From Armatimonadota bacterium (GTDB lineage Bacteria > Armatimonadota > Hebobacteria > CAIYQO01): a DNA stretch of 64,000 nucleotides. Below, one piece after another: positions 20,668 through 58,458 of the stretch. The stretch's first letter is position 1, and every line of letters begins with the position of its first letter. The notes beneath the pieces were generated by a model. That model worked only from the letters and a program-made list of their open reading frames with translations. It ran no database searches and was not told the DNA's origin. The translations under genes were made by a program, and so were the position numbers. The stretch is taken from assembly GCA_020060775.1 (NCBI GenBank), contig JAGUZN010000220.1, forward strand, positions 984-64,983, in the 5' to 3' direction.

Positions 20668-21037
20668 TATCGCCTCCTCCAGATACAAAAAGCCCAGGGG
20701 CAAATGCCTCTGGGCCTGGTCGCTTCGCTATTGGGCTGTTTTCTCGCGTCACCCAGCAGCAAACCGCCCAGACCCCTTGGTAAGAAGGAGTCCGGTCGTC
20801 TGCAGGCTAAGCTGGATGAACAGGATGCGCATAGATTGCTCCGTTGACCGATTATAACGAAACAGGGGGAGACTGTCCATCACTACATCGGCCAGGTCTG
20901 TGCACTTGCCATTCATTAACTATCATTACCACTATTTATCATTGATACTTACGAATGCCATTGACGGATACTTTTGGGAGGGATATCGTGTGAGTGGAGC
21001 ACCGGTGATACTCCGGTACAAGAGGAGGGCGATCATG

Positions 21038-22504
21038 AGCACTGAGATGGTTACAGCGGAGCAGGAATTGCTCTCACTCGAAGACGCCGCCGAGTTCTTA
21101 TGTGTGAGCAAGTCGACGATGTATCGGTTGCTCGATCAACGCAAGCTGACCGGCATGAAGGCGGGGAAGCAGTGGCGGTTTCGCAAAGAAGACCTTCTTG
21201 CGTATATGCAGCGCGGGCCTGCCGCTCAGGCGCTGGCCAAAGTGCCCATGCCGGTGCTGGATACCGAACTGGATTTCCTTGGAACGGAGTTGGCAAAGGC
21301 GGGCACCGAACCCGCGGCCTGCGATTATCCGATGCTGGAAGATGAAGCGGGAAGAATCACCCAGTATCTCCGCCGGCTCGTCTGGCTGCTGCATACGCTG
21401 CGTGGAAGCGATATCCATCTGAACCCCATCTGGCAGGCTGATGGCGCGGCCGTGCAACTCGTCCTGCGCGTTGATGGCGCGCTACGAGAGATTCGTCGCT
21501 TGCCATTCGTCATGTACGACGCGCTAGTGCTGGAATGGAAACGTCAGGCAGAGCTGCCGATCGAGGATACGCATCACCCGCATGAGGGACGCTCACAATT
21601 CGTCTTCGGAGAGATCATGCTTTCTCACCGCGTCGCCACGGTGTCGACCATTTATGGTGAAAAGGTCTCGGTGCGTCCTCTCCCGACTACCATCCCCACG
21701 CTGCAGGTGCTGGGCATCGACGACACACCGTTAGTGGCGTTGAGCAAGCGCCAGCGTGGATTGCTCATCTTTGCCGGTCCCACCGGCTCGGGCAAAGCCA
21801 CCACCATGTCGGCGTTCGTGCAGGAGATTCTCACCCATGGCCCCCGCAACATCATGACCGTGGTTGATCCGGTCGAGTATATCTTCATGCACGGCGTCAC
21901 CCATCTGAATCTGGCGCAGATGACGCCGGTCGAGGGACTGCGCGCCGTGTTGTACCACGATCCGGATGTCGTCATGCTCGGCGAGCTGCGGGACGATCCT
22001 GAACTTGCACAGCAGGCGATATGGACGGCGGAAACCGGTCATCTCGTCCTCACCTGCCAGCATGCCAGCGATCCTGTCGAACTGCTATACGAGATGCTCG
22101 CTATGGGCGTGAAGCGCGCCCTTTTCGCCAACAATCTGATCGGCGTGGTCTATCAACAGCTTGCCCCCAAGCTTTGCGCGCAATGCCGTATACCGGCCAC
22201 GCCGGAACCGGACACTCTGGAGAAGATGCGCCAGGCAGCGCGAGCGGGTGGGTATACGCTGCCGGAGGACGCGGTGTTTTACCAGCAGACGGGTTGCCCA
22301 TCGTGCGGCGGCCGTGTCGCCTTGCATGAGTTCATCCTCTTTACCCCCGAGGTGCGCCAGGCCTTTCTGCAGTGCGCCTCGAAAGAGGAATTTACGAAAG
22401 AGCTACGCGCGCAAGGACTGCTATCCTTCTTCGCGGCGCAGGTGCAACAGGCTGTATCGGGTAAAATCTCGCTGGAGACGCTACAGCGCTATATGCCGTA
22501 CTGA
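21038..22504 (+). CDS. Excisionase/MerR-type HTH fused to a GspE/PilB-family secretion ATPase.
   Basis: HTH 'LSLEDAAEFLCVSKSTMYRLLDQRKLTGMKAGKQWRF'. Walker A 'GPTGSGKATT', 'GELRD' box and C-terminal 'CPSCGG' tetracysteine. AGGAGGG RBS before the ATG at 21038. Confidence 0.7.
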   Translation, partial: STEMVTAEQELLSLEDAAEFLCVSKSTMYRLLDQRKLTGMKAGKQWRFRKEDLLAYMQRGPAAQALAKVPMPVLDTELDFLGTELAKAGTEPAACDYPMLEDEAGRITQYLRRLVWLLHTLRGSDIHLNPIWQADGAAVQLVLRVDGALREIRRLPFVMYDALVLEWKRQAELPIEDTHHPHEGRSQFVFGEIMLSHRVATVSTIYGEKVSVRPLPTTIPTLQVLGIDDTPLVALSKRQRGLLIFAGPTGSGKATTMSAFVQEILTHGPRNIMTVVDPVEYIFMHGVTHLNLAQMTPVEGLRAVLYHDPDVVMLGELRDDPELAQQAIWTAETGHLVLTCQHASDPVELLYEMLAMGVKRALFANNLIGVVYQQLAPKLCAQCRIPATPEPDTLEKMRQAARAGGYTLPEDAVFYQQTGCPSCGGRVALHEFILFTPEVRQAFLQCASKEEFTKELRAQGLLSFFAAQVQQAVSGKISLETLQRYMPY

Positions 22505-38309: not shown

Positions 38310-39698
38310 ATAACGTAGGATATTTTTCGCACTTTCACCGAGGGGTTGCGGTGTAGCCCTTTCGCTGAGTAGAGTGTAAGCGCCAACTTACCATACTCAC
38401 GAAAGGGACTACACACGATGAACACTACGACAATCACTGGTGAGAGTCAAGCCCAAGCCGGGCTGGTGACGATCAATGAGGGGGAGCTGCGGGCGCATCT
38501 CGACCAGATCGTCACCGGCGCGGTGGAAGAGACGCTGAACCAATTGCTTGACGCGGAAGCGGAGGCGTTGTGCCAGGCGCGACGCTATGAGCGGACGGCG
38601 ACGCGGCAAGATACGCGGGCCGGGCATTACGCGCGTAAGCTCCAGACGCGGGCGGGCGAGGTGACGCTGAAGGTGCCGAAACTGCGGCAGCTGACCTTTG
38701 AGACGGCGATCATCGAGCGCTACCAGCGCCGGGAAGCCTCGGTGGAAGAGGCGCTGATCGAGATGTACCTCGCCGGGGTGAGCGTCCGGCGGGTGGAAGA
38801 CATCACCGAGGCGCTGTGGGGCACGAAGGTGAGCGCCTCGACGGTGAGTGACTTGAATCAGAAGCTCTACCTGCGCCTGGACGACTGGTTGGCCCGTCCG
38901 TTGACCGGGGACTTTGCCTACGTCTATCTGGACGGGCTCTGGCTGAAGAAGAGTTGGGGCGGCGAGGTGCAGACGGTCTCGGTGCTGGTGGCGGTGGGGG
39001 TGAGCGCCGACGGCTACCGGGAGATCCTGGGAGTCGCCGAAGGCATGAAGGAGGATACCGCAAGTTGGCGGGACTTCCTGCGGGGGATGAGGGCGCGGGG
39101 ATTGCAGGGTATCCGGCTGGTGGTCTCCGATTGCTGCCTGGGGCTGGTGGAGGCGCTGGGCGAGGTCTTCCCCGAGGCTGCTTGGCAGCGGTGCGTGGTG
39201 CACTTCTACCGCAATGTGCTGGGACAGGTGCCGCGGGGTAAGAGCCGGGAGGTGGCGACGATGCTGAAGGCGATTCATGCCCAGGAGGATCGCACGGCTG
39301 CCCTGCAGAAAGCAGAGGATGTCGCCGGGAAACTCCGGGGGCTGAAGCTGGAGAAGGCGGCCAAGGTGCTCCAAGCGGGCATCGCCGATACGCTGGCGTA
39401 CTATGCCTTCCCGAGTGAGCACTGGCGGAGTCTGCGTACGAATAATCCGTTGGAACGACTGAATCGAGAGATCCGTCGGCGGACCCGCGTGGTGGGCTGT
39501 TTCCCCGATGGCCGCTCGGCGGTGATGCTGGTGACCGCGCGCCTGCGGTATCTGGCCAGTAAAGACTGGGGGACCAAGCGGTATTTGAACATGCAACGCC
39601 TCTGGGACGCGGCGCCTTCCGGGGAGGAGGGCGCGTAGCGCGGAGGACAATCAGGCGCTCATACTCTACAAAAAGTGCGAAAAACTCTGGACACTACC
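38310..39698 (+). mobile_element. IS256-family insertion sequence, about 1.39 kb, apparently intact.
   Basis: Single Mutator-type transposase ORF. Imperfect terminal inverted repeats sharing TTTTTCGCACTTT (left 38323..38335; right reverse complement at 39672..39684). Left end 'GATAACGTAGG' resembles the IS256 IRL start. Confidence 0.75.
38418..39638 (+). CDS. IS256-family (Mutator-type) transposase.
   Basis: 'YVYLDGLWLK..AVGVSADGYREILG' and the characteristic IS256 N-terminus 'HLDQIVTGAVEETLNQLLDAEAEALCQARRYERT'. Confidence 0.88.
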   Translation: MNTTTITGESQAQAGLVTINEGELRAHLDQIVTGAVEETLNQLLDAEAEALCQARRYERTATRQDTRAGHYARKLQTRAGEVTLKVPKLRQLTFETAIIERYQRREASVEEALIEMYLAGVSVRRVEDITEALWGTKVSASTVSDLNQKLYLRLDDWLARPLTGDFAYVYLDGLWLKKSWGGEVQTVSVLVAVGVSADGYREILGVAEGMKEDTASWRDFLRGMRARGLQGIRLVVSDCCLGLVEALGEVFPEAAWQRCVVHFYRNVLGQVPRGKSREVATMLKAIHAQEDRTAALQKAEDVAGKLRGLKLEKAAKVLQAGIADTLAYYAFPSEHWRSLRTNNPLERLNREIRRRTRVVGCFPDGRSAVMLVTARLRYLASKDWGTKRYLNMQRLWDAAPSGEEGA

Positions 39699-53278: not shown

Positions 53279-53595
53279 ACCGGATGATGGCACACGCCAG
53301 GCCCCGCGCTTTCCGCATCTCGGTGGGGCGGGGCCTGGCGGTTGCAGTCATCCGCCCCCAACTCCCCCTGCCTGCGGAATTTGCACAGCTTAACCGCCAT
53401 CCCCGCCGTTCTCAAGAAAAGTGTCGTAAAGCTGCACATATTCCCTTGACAAGAGGTGCAACACTGGAGGCGATCACTGTCCACGCTGTCGTTTCGCCGG
53501 TCATGTACCTGGTCGCGCGGGGATCGGTTACACACAGCGTGCGCTCGGTGAACATACGAGAACACTGTCACAGGGAACAAAAGGAGGATCTCCCT

Positions 53596-54630
53596 ATGCT
53601 TAGGATGATGGCCGTTCTCGCGGTGGGGGGCGCGATGCTCATCAGCAGCCTCGCGTACGCTGCCCCGAGGGAGCTTTCGAGTGGTGACCTGGACACCGTC
53701 GCGGCTGGTGCGTACATCGACCAGTTCATTCCGACGATGCCGAATTCCGTGAATACCAATGCCGAATTCGCCTATGGCGACATTGCCGAAGCCGTGGGCG
53801 GCGCGGCGATCGTGGGTGATGCCAACGAAGTGACGTTGGCCGGCGCGACATGCGATGGCATTGCCGTGATTGGTAATGACAACATTACCGCTGACAACTC
53901 CAATGTGGTGGACGACGGCGCCGAGGTGGCGATCGCCGGCAATCACAACTCTGCCCTGCGCATCGATCAGGAAGATGCCGTGGCTGCGCTGGTGATTGGC
54001 CCCAATGCCACGTTCGATATCACCTTCAACGATGTTGAAGGCCTGATCGACGACGGTTCCGCCGTCGTCATCGGCGACAATAACCTGGTGGACGTGTACA
54101 TGGATGACACGGACGTCTATGGCACCATTGGCGGTAATTTCAGCCTTGTCGATACGAATACGGCAACTGCGACGATTGCGCAAACCAATACCGCCAACGC
54201 GAGTGGCGAAAGCAGTGCCGATATCACGCAGGCCAACATCGCCAACATCACCATCAACCAGAATGGCGATAACGACGATGCCTATGGCGTCATTGCGAAG
54301 GAAGCCAAGGTCGATCACGCCTTCAACGTGGATGAGCTCTACGTTGACGTGTCAGCGGATATCTGTGGTTCCTTCAACAAGGAAGACACCGCGATTAGCA
54401 TCTGCGGGCAGAATGGCGTATCCACCAATGTGAACGGCAATGCGGCCGGCCTGCAGGAAATCGGCTCATTGCTCAACACCACGAACGCCGCTGCCTCCGG
54501 CACCGGCGCGTTGGCCGATAACGGCTCGAGCATCTCGGCTGATGCCTTTGCGGACACCGCCGCCACCCAGATCGTGTTGAACGGCGTGTGCGTGGGGATC
54601 GGCATCTTCGTCGATGGTGGTGCTCGATAG
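53596..54630 (+). CDS. Secreted Asn/Asp/Gly/Ala-rich imperfect-repeat protein, paralog 1. Candidate amyloid-type fibre subunit.
   Basis: Signal peptide MLRMMAVLAVGGAMLISSLAYA, then 'ELSSGDLDTVAAG'. Repeats of the type 'IAVIGNDNITADNSNVVDDGAEVAIAGNHNSAL' and 'ANITINQNGDNDDAYGVI'. RBS AAGGAGGATCTCCC is identical to that of paralog 2. Confidence 0.7.
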   Translation: MLRMMAVLAVGGAMLISSLAYAAPRELSSGDLDTVAAGAYIDQFIPTMPNSVNTNAEFAYGDIAEAVGGAAIVGDANEVTLAGATCDGIAVIGNDNITADNSNVVDDGAEVAIAGNHNSALRIDQEDAVAALVIGPNATFDITFNDVEGLIDDGSAVVIGDNNLVDVYMDDTDVYGTIGGNFSLVDTNTATATIAQTNTANASGESSADITQANIANITINQNGDNDDAYGVIAKEAKVDHAFNVDELYVDVSADICGSFNKEDTAISICGQNGVSTNVNGNAAGLQEIGSLLNTTNAAASGTGALADNGSSISADAFADTAATQIVLNGVCVGIGIFVDGGAR

Positions 54631-54969
54631 ACCATCGCGGCTGATAACAGGTGAAACCAGGTGTGCGCACCCCGGGCATGCAATGGCTCGGGGTGCGTTG
54701 CTTAGTGTTGATACCCTGCGGAGCCCCGGAAGAGGGAGTGGATGAGAAAGTTGACAGATGCTCGGTTTTGCACAGGTTCTCCACCAGACGGCTTGTTCGT
54801 CAAGAAAGTGACGCCACTCCTGCACATATCTCCTTGACAATCGGTGTGATACTGAGGGCGATCATCGTACCGCCAACCCGCATGGCTGGTCGGGGTACTT
54901 CCCGCGCGACGACCCAGACAGGGACGCCGGAACGGTGAGACTATCACTGGGAAGTAAGGAGGATCTCCC

Positions 54970-55857
54970 ATGAAGACGAATGTGGGCGCGTTGCTGGTGG
55001 CAGGGCTTTTCCTCTGCAGCAGCATCGCAATCGCCGCACCGAAAGCACTTTCGAGTGCCGAGCTGGATGGCGTGGCGGCCGGGTTTGGTAACTGGGCCCC
55101 CCCGTCGACGAACAATACCCCGCAAAACATCCCCTTTATGGTGACCGAGGATGTCGCGGTGGCTGAACTCGGTGGACTGGCGATTGACGGTAACGAGAAC
55201 GAATACAAAGAGGCCTTTGCATCTGAAGATGCTATTGCCGTGATCGGCAATGACAACGAGACGATCGATGGCAGCAATTTCGTTGATGGTGATGGTGACT
55301 GCGAGATTGCCATCGCCGGCGAGATGAACGAAGCCATCTCGATCGAGCAGGATGCCGACTTCGCGCTGGTGGCCGGTGAGAACCTGTCGCTGAACGCGAC
55401 CTATAACGAAATCGGCAGTGTGGACGAGTCGGCGGTCGTGCTCGGCACCAACAATCACGTGACGGTGACGCAGGACGACACCTATATCGATGGTTTCATC
55501 GGCAACGGTGGCTACGGTGTGATTGCCAAGGAAGCCTGTGTCGTAGATTCCTTCAACACCAGCATCGTCGAGACCTATGTCACGGTGACCATTGAAGATT
55601 CGTTCAACTGCATTTCCAACACCCTGGACATCTCCGGCCAGAACAACATGACCGCGCTGGTGAATGCCAATACGTTGGGCGATCAGTACATCGGCGTGGC
55701 CGTGAACGTGACTAACGCGGCTGCGACCTCGAGTGCGCCTGGTCCGTCGGCGCCGGTGGTGGCGACCGCGCAAACGGCGGTTACCCAGGTTGTGGTCAAC
55801 GGCTCCTGCTTCTTCGGCATCGGAGTCATTGATCTCTTCCCTGGTAATGGCGGTTAA
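54970..55857 (+). CDS. Secreted Asn/Asp/Gly-rich imperfect-repeat protein, paralog 2.
   Basis: Signal peptide MKTNVGALLVAGLFLCSSIAIA, then 'ALSSAELDGVAAG'. Repeat content similar to paralog 1. Confidence 0.7.
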   Translation: MKTNVGALLVAGLFLCSSIAIAAPKALSSAELDGVAAGFGNWAPPSTNNTPQNIPFMVTEDVAVAELGGLAIDGNENEYKEAFASEDAIAVIGNDNETIDGSNFVDGDGDCEIAIAGEMNEAISIEQDADFALVAGENLSLNATYNEIGSVDESAVVLGTNNHVTVTQDDTYIDGFIGNGGYGVIAKEACVVDSFNTSIVETYVTVTIEDSFNCISNTLDISGQNNMTALVNANTLGDQYIGVAVNVTNAAATSSAPGPSAPVVATAQTAVTQVVVNGSCFFGIGVIDLFPGNGG

Positions 55858-55953
55858 GTCGCCGCAGTCGGTTCGAACGCAAGGCGGAAGGCTTTGTCGT
55901 TCGTCTGCACGGGGGCCGGGCTCACCCGGCCCCCACCGAGATAGGAGGGAGTG

Positions 55954-56484
55954 ATGACCACGAAGATTCTGCGATGGATGCTGCTCGGTGTCCTGAGCAT
56001 CCTGTGCATCAGCATCGTGGCTGCGGCGACTCCCCGCCCGTTGGCCGACCACCAGTTGGATGACGTGTACGCTGCGGGGTTCGATGTACAGGTCGATTTT
56101 AACATGGATGTTGCGGCGGAACGGCCGGAATCGGTCATTTTGCTATCCGGCGATCAACAAGCGTTGGAGTCGCTCGCCGGTCAGGGGATCACCCTGACGC
56201 GCACCATGGGCGGCGGGCGCAACACCGCCGGGCTCGACCCGAACGGCACCTATGTGCCGAATTTGCAAAACCTGACCAATAACACGATCAATCTCTCTGG
56301 AAACGCGTTGCAGAACGCGACGAGCCTGCTCAACATTTTTGCGTTGGAAGGCGATGTCGCGGTCGGTCTGAACCTGAACGTGGTGGTAAACCCGGTGAAC
56401 AGTCCGGTGAATGTGTCACAAATGAACCTAAACTGGGGCACACTCAATCTTTCGAATGCGTTGCCGACATTCGCTTCCCCGTGA
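55954..56484 (+). CDS. Secreted repeat protein, paralog 3 (shorter).
   Basis: Signal peptide, then 'LADHQLDDVYAAG'. N/L/T-rich repeats 'LNLNVVVNPVNSPVNVSQMNLNWGTLNLSN'. Confidence 0.6.
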   Translation: MTTKILRWMLLGVLSILCISIVAAATPRPLADHQLDDVYAAGFDVQVDFNMDVAAERPESVILLSGDQQALESLAGQGITLTRTMGGGRNTAGLDPNGTYVPNLQNLTNNTINLSGNALQNATSLLNIFALEGDVAVGLNLNVVVNPVNSPVNVSQMNLNWGTLNLSNALPTFASP

Positions 56485-56524
56485 AACGAGTAGACTAGAG
56501 GAGAAGCGTAACCCCGGAGGACGT

Positions 56525-57247
56525 ATGCGAAAGTTGAACCATCTGGTCACGATGACCGTGTTGGTATGGTGGGTTCTACTGCGAACCTCACCCGCGCTCG
56601 CGGGTGAGGTTCGCGTCCCCACCTCATCGTTTGGCGCCGGCATTTCGGTGAGCGTTGAGGTGAAGAGCATCAAAGAGATGCGCGAGGACGAGATGGTGCT
56701 GCAGCGGCTGGACTACAGTTGCGGGTCAGCCGCCCTCTCCACGATGTTCACGTCCTACCTGCACCAGGCCTACACGGAGGAGGAGATCATCGACTTTCTC
56801 CTGCAGAGCGGCAATATGCAAAAGTTTCTGGCGCGCAAAGGGTTTTCCATGCTTGACCTGAAACGCTTTGCGGAAGCGCATGGGGTCAAGGCGATCGGCT
56901 ATGAACTGGACCTGGAGAGCCTGGCAGAACTGAACCAGCCGGTGCTCATCCCGCTCTTCCGCAAAGCACAGGATATGCGTCACTTTGTGATCTTCCGTGG
57001 CATGCATGATGGCCGTGTCTTCCTGGCAGACCCGGCGGTGGGGCGTACGGTTATTCCCGTTGCGCAGTTTGAAGAGGAATGGACGCCGCGCGTCGGCATG
57101 GTCTTCCAGCGCCCGGGCTGGCCGACATGCGACGTGCATGCGCTGGCGGTTGAGGATCGCGATCGCATTTATCTGGATACCGAGCAAGTACGCGCCTTGA
57201 TTACCAATACCGTGGCGGACGTCTTCCACCAGGCGAATGAGTTTTAA
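56525..57247 (+). CDS. Secreted papain-like C39-family cysteine peptidase (stand-alone).
   Basis: Signal peptide. Catalytic Cys context 'QRLDYSCGSAALSTMF'. His context 'MRHFVIFRGMHDGRVFLADPAVG'. Confidence 0.75.
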   Translation: MRKLNHLVTMTVLVWWVLLRTSPALAGEVRVPTSSFGAGISVSVEVKSIKEMREDEMVLQRLDYSCGSAALSTMFTSYLHQAYTEEEIIDFLLQSGNMQKFLARKGFSMLDLKRFAEAHGVKAIGYELDLESLAELNQPVLIPLFRKAQDMRHFVIFRGMHDGRVFLADPAVGRTVIPVAQFEEEWTPRVGMVFQRPGWPTCDVHALAVEDRDRIYLDTEQVRALITNTVADVFHQANEF

Positions 57248-57363
57248 ATTTACCGTGTGAACCGTCAACATATACCGATGGCATCCCACTGTGATGGGAT
57301 CGGCAGTCGAGAGAAAACGATCGAAGAGTGATTAAAAACACGAGCTGAGAGGAGAAGATATCC

Positions 57364-58458
57364 GTGCGTATCACACCGGTTTTTGTTGCAGTGCTGGCAG
57401 CGCTGTGGTGCTGCCTGATGTCTGCCGCTACGGCACAGGTCACGCAATTACCCGGCATTCCTGCGGAAACCAGCCCGTTGCCCGTGGAAGACACGGCACC
57501 TGCCCCCCTACCCACCGGCGAGGGAGAGGACGAGGTGGCGCCACCGCCGGCCGAAGAGGCGGCGTTACCCTCGCAGGTACGGCGGGCGGACCTGATGATC
57601 AAGCGCGGCGAAGCTGAGTTGGAATGGCGCGTGTCCTACTCGCATTTCTCCTCCAACACCCTGTTTATCGATGGCGTGGCCATGTTGCCGATCATGGTTA
57701 TCGGCAATGTGGCGGTCGAACGCGTGCGGCGCGACCTGATCATCACGTCGGCGGCGGTGCGCTACGGGTTGCAGGACAATCTGGAGGGCGAGGTTCGCCT
57801 CCCCTTCCGCTACCAGTTCGAACGCCGGGCTGTTCCCGATGCCTCGCCCCCGCAGGAAGATACGCTCAACGGCTTCGGCCTGGGTGATATCGAAGGGGCA
57901 CTGTATTACCAACTTCCCAAGACACCGCAGAGCACCGTGCGGTGGATCGTCAGCGCCGGGGTGAAAACCGCTACCGGCAAGGATATCTTCGAAATCGATA
58001 CCAACGAGGAAGTCCCACTGGGCTCGGGGTTCTGGAGTTCGAAGTTCGGCATCACCGGCATGAAGATCGCCGATCCCGCCGCGATCTACTGGAACGCGGG
58101 CTTCACCTATAACTGGCTGCGGGAGAATATCCGCATCGTCTCGACAGATCAGACGACCGGCGACACCGTAGTCAGTTACGTCAATATCAAACCGGGCAAC
58201 ACTATCGATTTCGGCGGCGGCGTGGCCTATGCGCTGAATCCCAAACTCTCCCTCAACATGGGCGTGTCCGCCAGCTTTAGCGGTTCGACCACCTCAAACG
58301 ACCGGCGCGTGCCCAACACCGCGGTGACCAGCGCCACCCTCCGGTTAGGGGCGGTGTGGGTAGGGGAAGTCCTGCCGGTTGATCTCTCGCTCGGCATCGG
58401 GCTCACGGAAGACTCTCCGGACTTCACGCTCGAATTCCGTCAGAACTATCGATTTTGA
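57364..58458 (+). CDS. Secreted protein with a Pro/Ala/Glu-rich linker and a C-terminal beta-barrel-like domain ending in an aromatic residue (outer-membrane transporter-like; FapF-like by architecture).
   Basis: Signal peptide MRITPVFVAVLAALWCCLMSAATAQ. Alternating hydrophobic beta-strand pattern. C-terminal '..EFRQNYRF'. Confidence 0.55.
   Translation: MRITPVFVAVLAALWCCLMSAATAQVTQLPGIPAETSPLPVEDTAPAPLPTGEGEDEVAPPPAEEAALPSQVRRADLMIKRGEAELEWRVSYSHFSSNTLFIDGVAMLPIMVIGNVAVERVRRDLIITSAAVRYGLQDNLEGEVRLPFRYQFERRAVPDASPPQEDTLNGFGLGDIEGALYYQLPKTPQSTVRWIVSAGVKTATGKDIFEIDTNEEVPLGSGFWSSKFGITGMKIADPAAIYWNAGFTYNWLRENIRIVSTDQTTGDTVVSYVNIKPGNTIDFGGGVAYALNPKLSLNMGVSASFSGSTTSNDRRVPNTAVTSATLRLGAVWVGEVLPVDLSLGIGLTEDSPDFTLEFRQNYRF

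Follow-up and report, generated by a model that had tools for sequence, protein, structure and literature searches.

The Fap system of Pseudomonas exports fibre subunits with the help of a C39-family peptidase, FapD, and an outer-membrane barrel, FapF. FapD is periplasmic, and its catalytic cysteine is needed for the secretion of FapC; among the Fap proteins, FapE alone lacks detectable N-terminal peptides; and these proteins were said to lack canonical C39 recognition sequences, with the target of FapD described as something that "remains unclear" (Rouse et al. 2017, PMC5557850). Homologues of fapD and fapF are co-located in five further phyla (Rouse et al. 2018, PMC6173800), and a paper from 2025 says that FapD "modifies Fap proteins" and nothing more specific (PMC12459412). 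Another related system, Fil (FilA-F of Acinetobacter and Pseudomonas; NCBIfam NF050077-79), is a putative pilus system by annotation. Here we describe a locus of this general kind from a member of the Armatimonadota. It lies in a 64,000-nucleotide stretch of contig JAGUZN010000220.1 (assembly GCA_020060775.1), which we call the window. We think it probable (roughly 0.7) that this locus encodes FapD/FapF-type machinery, together with leader processing, for a new family of acidic surface proteins that are rich in Asn, Asp, Gly, and Ala.

The locus consists of five co-oriented genes on the + strand, spanning 53596-58458: rep1, rep2, and rep3, which encode the candidate cargo proteins, and then a C39 peptidase and a barrel protein (Table 1). 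A first-pass annotation of this DNA had proposed these five genes, with signal peptides on the repeat proteins and on the peptidase. That much is borne out. As read from the translations, all five products begin with a Sec-type signal peptide, with a basic n-region, a hydrophobic core, and an A-x-A site.

The peptidase matches Pfam PF03412 at 72.6 bits (the cut-off is 22), and the closest solved structures are the peptidase domains of LahT150 (6mpz) and ComA, which are double-glycine proteases. When 20 homologues with identities as low as 24% are aligned, Q60, C66, H153, and D169 do not vary; C66 and H153 are the cysteine of SCGSAAL and the histidine of RHFVIF that the first-pass annotation had picked out. 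The enzyme stands alone and is secreted, as that annotation also held (its signal peptide is MRKLNHLVTMTVLVWWVLLRTSPALA, followed by GE). Against the NCBIfam models, it scores 122.9 bits for FilB (NF050078, 1.5e-35; cut-off 475) and 99.9 bits for FapD (NF058616, E=1.2e-28; equivalog cut-off 330). Similarly, it is 34% identical to Pseudomonas FilB and 31% identical to genuine Pseudomonas FapD. By these scores, the peptidase is a true but distant homologue of FapD and FilB, and not a FapD equivalog.

The barrel protein gives a similar picture. Its residues 75-363 match the crystal structure of FapF (PDB 5o65) with E=5e-21 in a search of PDB sequences. It matches the NCBIfam models for FapF (NF058560, 1.4e-28, 99.8 bits, HMM positions 120-420 only) and FilC (NF050079, 7e-18, 65.1 bits) at scores below their cut-offs of 700 (equivalog) and 630, respectively. 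With BLASTP, residues 82-364 pair with residues 122-422 only of FapF, at 25% identity. The N-terminus has a signal peptide and then a P/A/E-rich linker, with no counterpart to FapF's N-terminal coiled coil, and the C-terminus is YRF. The linker and the barrel-like C-terminus had been described before, along with the correspondence to fapF, and all of this holds up if the relationship to FapF and FilC is understood to be distant. The homology also speaks against a soluble, non-barrel product, which the first-pass annotation had named, together with a lack of fibres, as an outcome that would undo its proposal. It had suggested a search with hidden Markov models (HMMs) of FapB, FapC, FapD, FapF, CsgA, and CsgB: the peptidase and the barrel match the FapD and FapF models, and the cargos match none. 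In the broad sense, then, the sequences describe a FapD/FapF-type module, with a secreted C39 peptidase that has an intact catalytic set and, adjacent to it, a FapF-homologous barrel.

The most informative feature of the locus was overlooked in the first-pass annotation. Directly after the predicted signal-peptidase site, each of the three cargos carries a leader of the double-glycine type: APRELSSGDLDTVAAG in rep1 (a pro-leader of 16 amino acids), APKALSSAELDGVAAG in rep2, and TPRPLADHQLDDVYAAG in rep3. The pattern common to the three is L-S-x-x-E/D/Q-L-D-x-V-x-A-G. The six-frame translation of the 64-kb window contains exactly three matches to the pattern, all at the N-termini of rep1, rep2, and rep3, and 200 shuffles contain none. 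(Taken up to the predicted cut, which we mark with a slash, the rep3 leader is PRPLADHQLDDVYAAG/FD.) Double-glycine leaders have the consensus L-S-x-x-E-L-x-x-I/V-x-G-G, with G-A and A-G tolerated. They are also found at the extreme N-terminus, in systems with an ABC (ATP-binding cassette) transporter that has a fused C39 domain; here, a Sec signal comes first and the peptidase is separate.

The leaders are conserved. Of 32 representatives of the large-cargo family (that of rep1 and rep2), 27 carry them, and three of the other five are N-terminal fragments. All 27 fit the double-glycine register. The near-invariant positions are -16 A, -15 P, -12 L, -7 L/M, -6 D, -4 V/I, -2 A, and -1 G, and there is further conservation at -11 (S/T) and -8 (Q/E/D). 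The signal peptide before the leader has 22-26 residues, and the -1 residue falls at position 35-38. In the rep3 family, LxDxQLDxVYAAG/F is present in nine of nine homologues. Structural models of rep2 and rep3 both place a helix on the leader, albeit with low confidence. From its position and these motifs, the neighbouring periplasmic C39 peptidase most likely cuts the leaders of rep1, rep2, and rep3.

Table 1. Features of the locus, with positions in the window
Feature	Position	Strand	Description
Conserved non-coding region before rep1	53366..53595	+	Candidate promoter/operator blocks, 5' leader, and ribosome-binding site (RBS) context AAGGAGGATCTCCC
rep1	53596..54630	+	344 amino acids (aa), large acidic cargo; open reading frame (ORF) and translation
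rep1 leader motif LSSGDLDTVAAG	53674..53709	+	Motif scan of the window; predicted C39 cut after AAG
Conserved non-coding region before rep2	54740..54969	+	Same blocks as before rep1
rep2	54970..55857	+	295 aa, large acidic cargo, paralog of rep1
rep2 leader motif LSSAELDGVAAG	55048..55083	+	Motif scan of the window; family conservation
GC-rich 10-bp hairpin without U tract	55911..55934	+	Between rep2 and rep3; candidate attenuator or mRNA-stability element
rep3	55951..56484	+	177 aa, small N-rich subunit; public gene call starts at 55954
rep3 leader motif LADHQLDDVYAAG	56041..56079	+	One extra residue before AG; predicted cut after AAG or YAA
C39 peptidase	56525..57247	+	240 aa; start as in public gene call
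Outer-membrane beta-barrel, FapF homologue	57364..58458	+	364 aa

To place the locus, we scanned one genome per species and found at least 595 relatives of the peptidase. We examined 87 loci: the window, loci found earlier, and the best 80 of the relatives (individual loci are given L numbers below). A FapF-like barrel stands beside the C39 gene in 83 of the 87, so the pairing that the first-pass annotation saw here is widespread. The C39-plus-barrel loci span the Armatimonadota, Omnitrophota, Aquificota, Nitrospirota, Desulfobacterota, and Pseudomonadota. We sorted the 87 loci by HMM classes of the neighbouring genes. The Fil type, in which several FilA/DUF6160-like paralogs are present, accounts for 35; in 26, a FapE-like small protein comes immediately after the peptidase; 10 are rep-type loci like the one in the window, including an Omnitrophota metagenome-assembled genome (MAG) and Ectothiorhodospira haloalkaliphila; and 16 are unclassified. 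In E. haloalkaliphila the genes run cargo, cargo, small subunit, peptidase, barrel, and the order [cargo]-[small]-[C39]-[barrel] is kept in the Armatimonadota loci as well. What the sequences show is that the peptidase and the barrel are homologous to FapD/FilB and FapF/FilC, that the leader is present and conserved, and that the genes keep the same neighbours.

The other types of loci also have leaders. In the 35 Fil-type loci, the FilA/DUF6160-like paralogs have a signal peptide and then [LIM]xDxxLSxV[ST]G[QRG]DG[IV]; these N-terminal regions match Pfam DUF6160 and the FilA model weakly, below the curated cut-offs. We also note that these loci (35 among L010-L087) have up to six tandem paralogs (e.g., L014 3576-7803, L040 3930-7397, and L081 4144-7414), and that several of them have a conserved gene of about 230 aa (MGWLS...QLLVKKKLISEEQL...) a few kb away. 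In 14 FapE-like proteins, an invariant RGG and then a near-invariant Phe or Tyr follow [VL]Sxx[EQ]Lxx. A heuristic scan for proteins with a signal peptide plus a leader gave 23 candidates within 3.5 kb of a peptidase gene (in 506 kb) versus 8 farther away (in 565 kb), and several of those 8 are additional cargo paralogs.

For comparison, we fetched genuine fap operons from Pseudomonas (L091-L170) with the sequence of the FapF structure and took FapE to be the ORF upstream of fapF. In 48 of 49, FapE has a signal peptide and then KPIE[LM][KN]D[SA]E[ML]AxLRGR/[YF] (e.g., L092 5860-6609), which is a leader of the double-glycine type with Arg at -1. FapB and FapC from the same operons lack a leader. 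This contrast suggests that FapE is a substrate of FapD in Pseudomonas. More broadly, C39-plus-barrel secretion systems may form a class that spans phyla and shares one address tag, a Sec signal plus a double-glycine-type leader, with FapE as the FapD substrate and removal of the tag as the step that commits a protein to export. The class would take in Fap, Fil, the systems with FapE-like "RGG/F" proteins, and the present type, of which this locus would be the clearest natural example. We hold this broader idea tentatively and would give it slightly less than an even chance. In the literature on DUF6160, on FilA/FilB, and on FapD since 2019, we found no mechanistic description of these leaders; our coverage was incomplete, and they may have been described earlier elsewhere.

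How does the locus compare with the known systems? Like Fap, it has a stand-alone periplasmic C39 peptidase with catalytic Cys and His, a homologous outer-membrane barrel, a Sec-exported cargo of low complexity that is encoded upstream, and a small subunit whose leader follows the signal peptide in the same register (in FapE, ...DSEMAELRGR/Y). Unlike in Fap, every cargo has a leader, with the canonical A-G and not G-R at its end, HMMs show no relationship between the cargo families and FapB, FapC, or FapE, and there is no FapA. Also, the small-subunit gene is upstream of the peptidase gene rather than between it and the barrel gene, as fapE is. So the claim that the gene order mirrors the fap operon was right about the machinery genes, which are homologous, but not about the place of the small subunit. 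As to Fil, the peptidase has its best match in FilB, the barrel is a relative of FilC, and FilA/DUF6160-like subunits are likewise encoded by tandem paralogs and have a leader, [LIM]xDxxLSxV[ST]G[QRG], behind a signal peptide; but the cargos do not match FilA or DUF6160, and the scores of the machinery are far below the cut-offs for either system. Genes for a FadL-like FilD or for FilE/FilF are absent downstream of the barrel gene, where we find smc instead. Judging from these sequences, the locus is outside Fap and Fil as they are curated: it is a system of the FapD/FapF kind with a new cargo family and a canonical leader on every cargo.

Two other comparisons are more remote. Substrates of peptidase-containing ABC transporters (PCATs), such as class II bacteriocins, ComC/ComA, and LahT, share the register L(-12) S/T(-11) E/D/Q(-8) L(-7) V/I(-4) A/G(-2) G(-1), and their peptidases are from the same fold family. 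Here, however, the leader is internal, after a Sec signal, the peptidase is free in the periplasm, the cargos are large and acidic, and export would be (by homology) via an outer-membrane barrel instead of an ABC transporter. Curli (CsgA/CsgB plus CsgG) is similar by analogy only, in that it has a major subunit and a smaller conserved one, degenerate repeats that contain G-x-N and are about 20 residues long, and subunits that cross the outer membrane unfolded. There is no sequence relation to CsgA or CsgB, there are no CsgG, CsgE, or CsgF, and the channel belongs to another family.

The large cargos are a rare family. A word-indexed search of 5.8 billion sequences with rep2 found only itself and one relative with 42% identity, and a full HMMER search of 1.84 billion proteins brought the family to 33 representatives, nearly all from uncultured bacteria and apparently mostly from the Armatimonadota. 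None of rep1, rep2, and rep3 matches any family in Pfam or NCBIfam at E<=1, including FapA, FapB, FapC, FapE, FilA (NF050077)/DUF6160, and the curlin repeats, and a profile of the large-cargo family has no match among PDB sequences. The first-pass annotation had likewise seen no obvious similarity to Fap or curli subunits. By these searches, rep1 and rep2 are a previously unnamed family that is unrelated in sequence to FapB/FapC or CsgA/CsgB.

Family members range from about 250 to 1448 aa. They have the N-terminal leader, a variable middle that is rich in D, N, G, A, and T, and, at the C-terminus, a conserved module some 120 residues long (GVIAxEAxVxDSFN ... DSFNVxTNTLxISGQ ... NLNVTxA ... 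QxVxN). In rep1, the middle is a D/N/G/A-rich region with degenerate repeats. Mature rep1 has an isoelectric point (pI) of about 4.05 and a net charge of -39, and the large cargos have almost no Lys or Arg and about -12 charges per 100 residues. CsgA and FapC are not known to be so acidic. Because the cargos are so acidic, their folding outside the cell may depend on cations, but this is speculation. Imperfect repeats had been noticed before. They are present in rep1 and rep2 as five or six hhhG[DN]xN motifs spaced about 19-24 residues apart, with an autocorrelation z of only about 3; longer homologues show them more clearly (z 5-8.6), and rep3 lacks them. The most repetitive is a 1448-aa cargo in L006 (3018-7364; z 8.6 at lag 41), which retains the conserved C-terminal end. 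Many homologues end in a hydrophobic stretch plus Phe, much like an outer-membrane beta-signal (...TDITVTF, ...LVNIQF, or ...TITITF). We saw this in L002 (3754-5355 and 5693-7363), in the cargos of L008, and in P0142, P0143, P0149, and P0151, but not in rep1 or rep2.

Rep3 was described as a third repeat paralog. Although rep1 and rep2 are indeed paralogs (47% identity), profile comparison sets rep3 apart: hhalign aligns the rep3 family with the rep1/rep2 family over the leader region only (95% probability). It also aligns the rep3 family with the FapE-like proteins over the leader only, at the RGG/F site, with a probability of just 56%. Rep3 has nine homologues of 165-185 aa with 48-57% identity. 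An orthologue is directly upstream of the C39 gene in L002, L004, L006, L088, and L090; L089 is an exception, as the small-subunit gene stands among the cargo paralogs. In Ectothiorhodospira and the Omnitrophota MAG, weak relatives are encoded upstream of the C39 gene. The Asn-rich C-terminal segment of rep3 scores 9.6 bits against the C-terminal module of the large cargos, versus 7.5 bits for the best of 1020 shuffles, and we do not claim homology from this. Against the PDB, the profile of the rep3 family has just one weak and unrelated match, to the phage short tail fibre gp92 (PDB 9zd7 residues 312-387, E=0.0023, 20.6 bits), which may reflect composition alone. On this sequence evidence, rep3 is a separate conserved subunit of about 178 aa and not a repeat paralog. 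By analogy with FapE, FapB, or CsgB, it may act as a nucleator, an anchor, or a secretion primer, which is speculative.

A conserved region precedes each large-cargo gene. The one before rep1 and the one before rep2 (230 nt each) share 77% identity, and the same 14 nt, AAGGAGGATCTCCC, stand before both start codons. The first-pass annotation had reported this identical RBS context and took it as a sign of recent duplication. The observation is correct, but the interpretation is not: the upstream blocks, including AAGGAGGATCTCCC, are also found before cargo genes in five other genomes (L002, L004, L008, L089, and L090) whose cargo proteins have strongly diverged, and rep1 and rep2 are themselves less than half identical. 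So this context is a conserved element rather than a sign of recent duplication. The blocks before each large cargo gene are TTTGCACAGGTT.T.CACCATAG, CAAGAAAGTG.CGGGGAACCTG.ACAT, GTGCGAGACT, CATCGG, CCGCAGCGGCGAC, and AAGGAGGATCTCCC-ATG. A GGAG/CUCC pairing across the Shine-Dalgarno sequence is possible. We considered a riboswitch upstream of the cargo genes, but it is not supported: a scan of the locus with Rfam gave no credible match, and RNAalifold on 13 upstream regions gave only a 4-bp hairpin over the RBS, with no covariation. Scans for sigma-70 promoters and terminators gave nothing above the expectation from shuffled sequences. We read these 230 or so nucleotides as a probable promoter or operator, together with a leader, for some regulator.

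There is also a hairpin that separates the large-cargo genes from those for the small subunit, the peptidase, and the barrel. The fold of 55858-55950 has an energy of -50.3 kcal/mol (z -3.3). A GC-rich hairpin of 10-13 bp, again with no U tract, occurs at the same place in L002, L004, L006, L089, and L090 (six of six loci, including the window); the structure is retained although the sequence differs from one genome to another. This layout would fit strong expression of the genes for the subunits and weaker expression of those for the machinery.

The locus lies between genes for an amidohydrolase and an AP_endonuc_2 protein, upstream, and smc, downstream. The upstream pair is shared with L004 and the downstream smc with L002, L089, and L090. 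These shared flanks across Armatimonadota MAGs indicate that the locus is chromosomal and ancestral. Its G+C content resembles that of the remainder of the window. Elsewhere in the window there are two unrelated oddities. First, positions 33600-39650 have a G+C content of 0.40-0.45, versus about 0.60, and contain two ORFs without a Pfam family and a sodium:solute symporter, followed by an IS256/Mutator-family transposase (38418-39638); this was probably acquired horizontally. Second, positions 20900-22504 encode an unusual fusion, a type II/IV secretion ATPase (T2SSE) that has an HTH_17 DNA-binding domain at its N-terminus.

If our reading is correct, then rep1, rep2, and rep3 would cross the inner membrane via Sec as pre-pro-proteins, and signal peptidase would cut them after A-x-A, as predicted from their sequences. 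This would expose a pro-leader of 14-16 residues, A-P-R/K-x-L-S-x-x-E/D/Q-L-D-x-V-x-A-G, with hydrophobic residues at -12, -7, and -4, Ser or Thr at -11, Gln or an acidic residue at -8, and a small residue at both -2 and -1. The periplasmic C39 peptidase would then bind the pro-leader and cut after A-G, and the still-unfolded protein would probably be handed to the FapF-like barrel, or else licensed for export. Given its homology to FapF, the barrel would be the route through the outer membrane. Once outside, the abundant rep1 and rep2 might assemble into a fibre or matrix, with rep3 as nucleator, anchor, or primer, but these last roles are speculative. We infer where the cut falls, that cutting and export are coupled, and that the product is a fibre. 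As to the last of these, the product of rep1 and rep2 may be a fibre, but we would give this somewhat less than an even chance.

Several points weigh against this proposal. Our argument is built from homology, motifs, and gene neighbourhood, and it predicts cleavage, export, and fibre formation from sequence only. The exact scissile bond is uncertain, as position -2 is Ala and not Gly and as rep3 has an extra residue. FapB and FapC have no leader, which implies that leader-dependent export of the major cargo is not universal. The 1448-aa cargo of L006 has no leader motif near its N-terminus; either it is an exception to the rule or its start is miscalled. As for fibres, the repeats of rep1 and rep2 are statistically weak, and AlphaFold2 gives no confident fold for rep2 (28-sequence alignment; predicted local distance difference test [pLDDT] 54, with a helix on leader residues 29-36) or for rep3 (9 sequences; pLDDT 40, with a helical leader), so that a beta-solenoid or amyloid core is not shown. 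Finally, such extreme acidity does not favour spontaneous amyloid formation.

These last points raise an alternative, which is that the same machinery exports acidic secreted or surface proteins (a cation-binding matrix, an adhesin, or something akin to an S-layer) that fold only outside the cell and do not form amyloid or fibres. The low pI and the near absence of Lys and Arg would fit this, as would the D/N/G-rich hhhG[DN]xN motifs, the wide range of lengths with a variable middle and a conserved C-terminal module, the disordered monomer models, and the lack of similarity to any amyloid subunit or solved fibre. On the other hand, the only characterized relatives of the machinery export fibre subunits (Fap; Fil is a putative pilus system by annotation), and a set of tandem paralogs, each with a strong RBS of its own and with a hairpin after the last, looks like major-subunit genes. 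On balance, we consider this alternative unlikely, but it deserves to be taken seriously.

It is far less plausible that rep1, rep2, and rep3 are bacteriocin-like toxins or signalling proteins whose leaders are removed during PCAT-like export. The leader does fit the double-glycine consensus, and both LahT150 and ComA, which give the closest peptidase domains of known structure, come from such transporters. But neither an ABC transporter nor an immunity gene is in the gene list of the locus, the leaders stand behind a Sec signal instead of at the N-terminus, and the peptidase is itself secreted. Furthermore, the mature proteins are 130-300 aa, highly acidic, and of low complexity, and the chromosomal location beside smc is conserved in several genomes. 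Least plausible of all, the barrel could be a COG4313/MetA-type channel for the uptake of hydrophobic compounds that is functionally unrelated to its neighbours, so that the gene order would be a coincidence: it barely exceeds the cut-off of Pfam Phenol_MetA_deg (PF13557; 23.1 versus 22 bits), and a relationship between FapF and the COG4313 channels has been noted (Rouse et al. 2018, PMC6173800), but Pfam does not separate these two groups, the PDB search retrieves FapF only and no COG4313 structure, and both the C39-barrel adjacency and the order of the cargo and small-subunit genes before them are conserved as described above.

We return to the proposal that this is leader-processing machinery of the FapD/FapF type with new cargos. 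The substrate and the role of FapD-type periplasmic C39 peptidases have been in question since 2017 (PMC5557850; PMC12459412). This locus and its relatives predict that these enzymes cleave after V-x-A-G, R-G-G, or (in FapE) R-G-R, within a leader that is directly behind the signal peptide. They also indicate that, in several phyla, no fewer than four unrelated families of cargo are served by the C39-plus-barrel export module. And if the products of the Armatimonadota locus are fibres, then they would be a new and very acidic kind of bacterial surface polymer.

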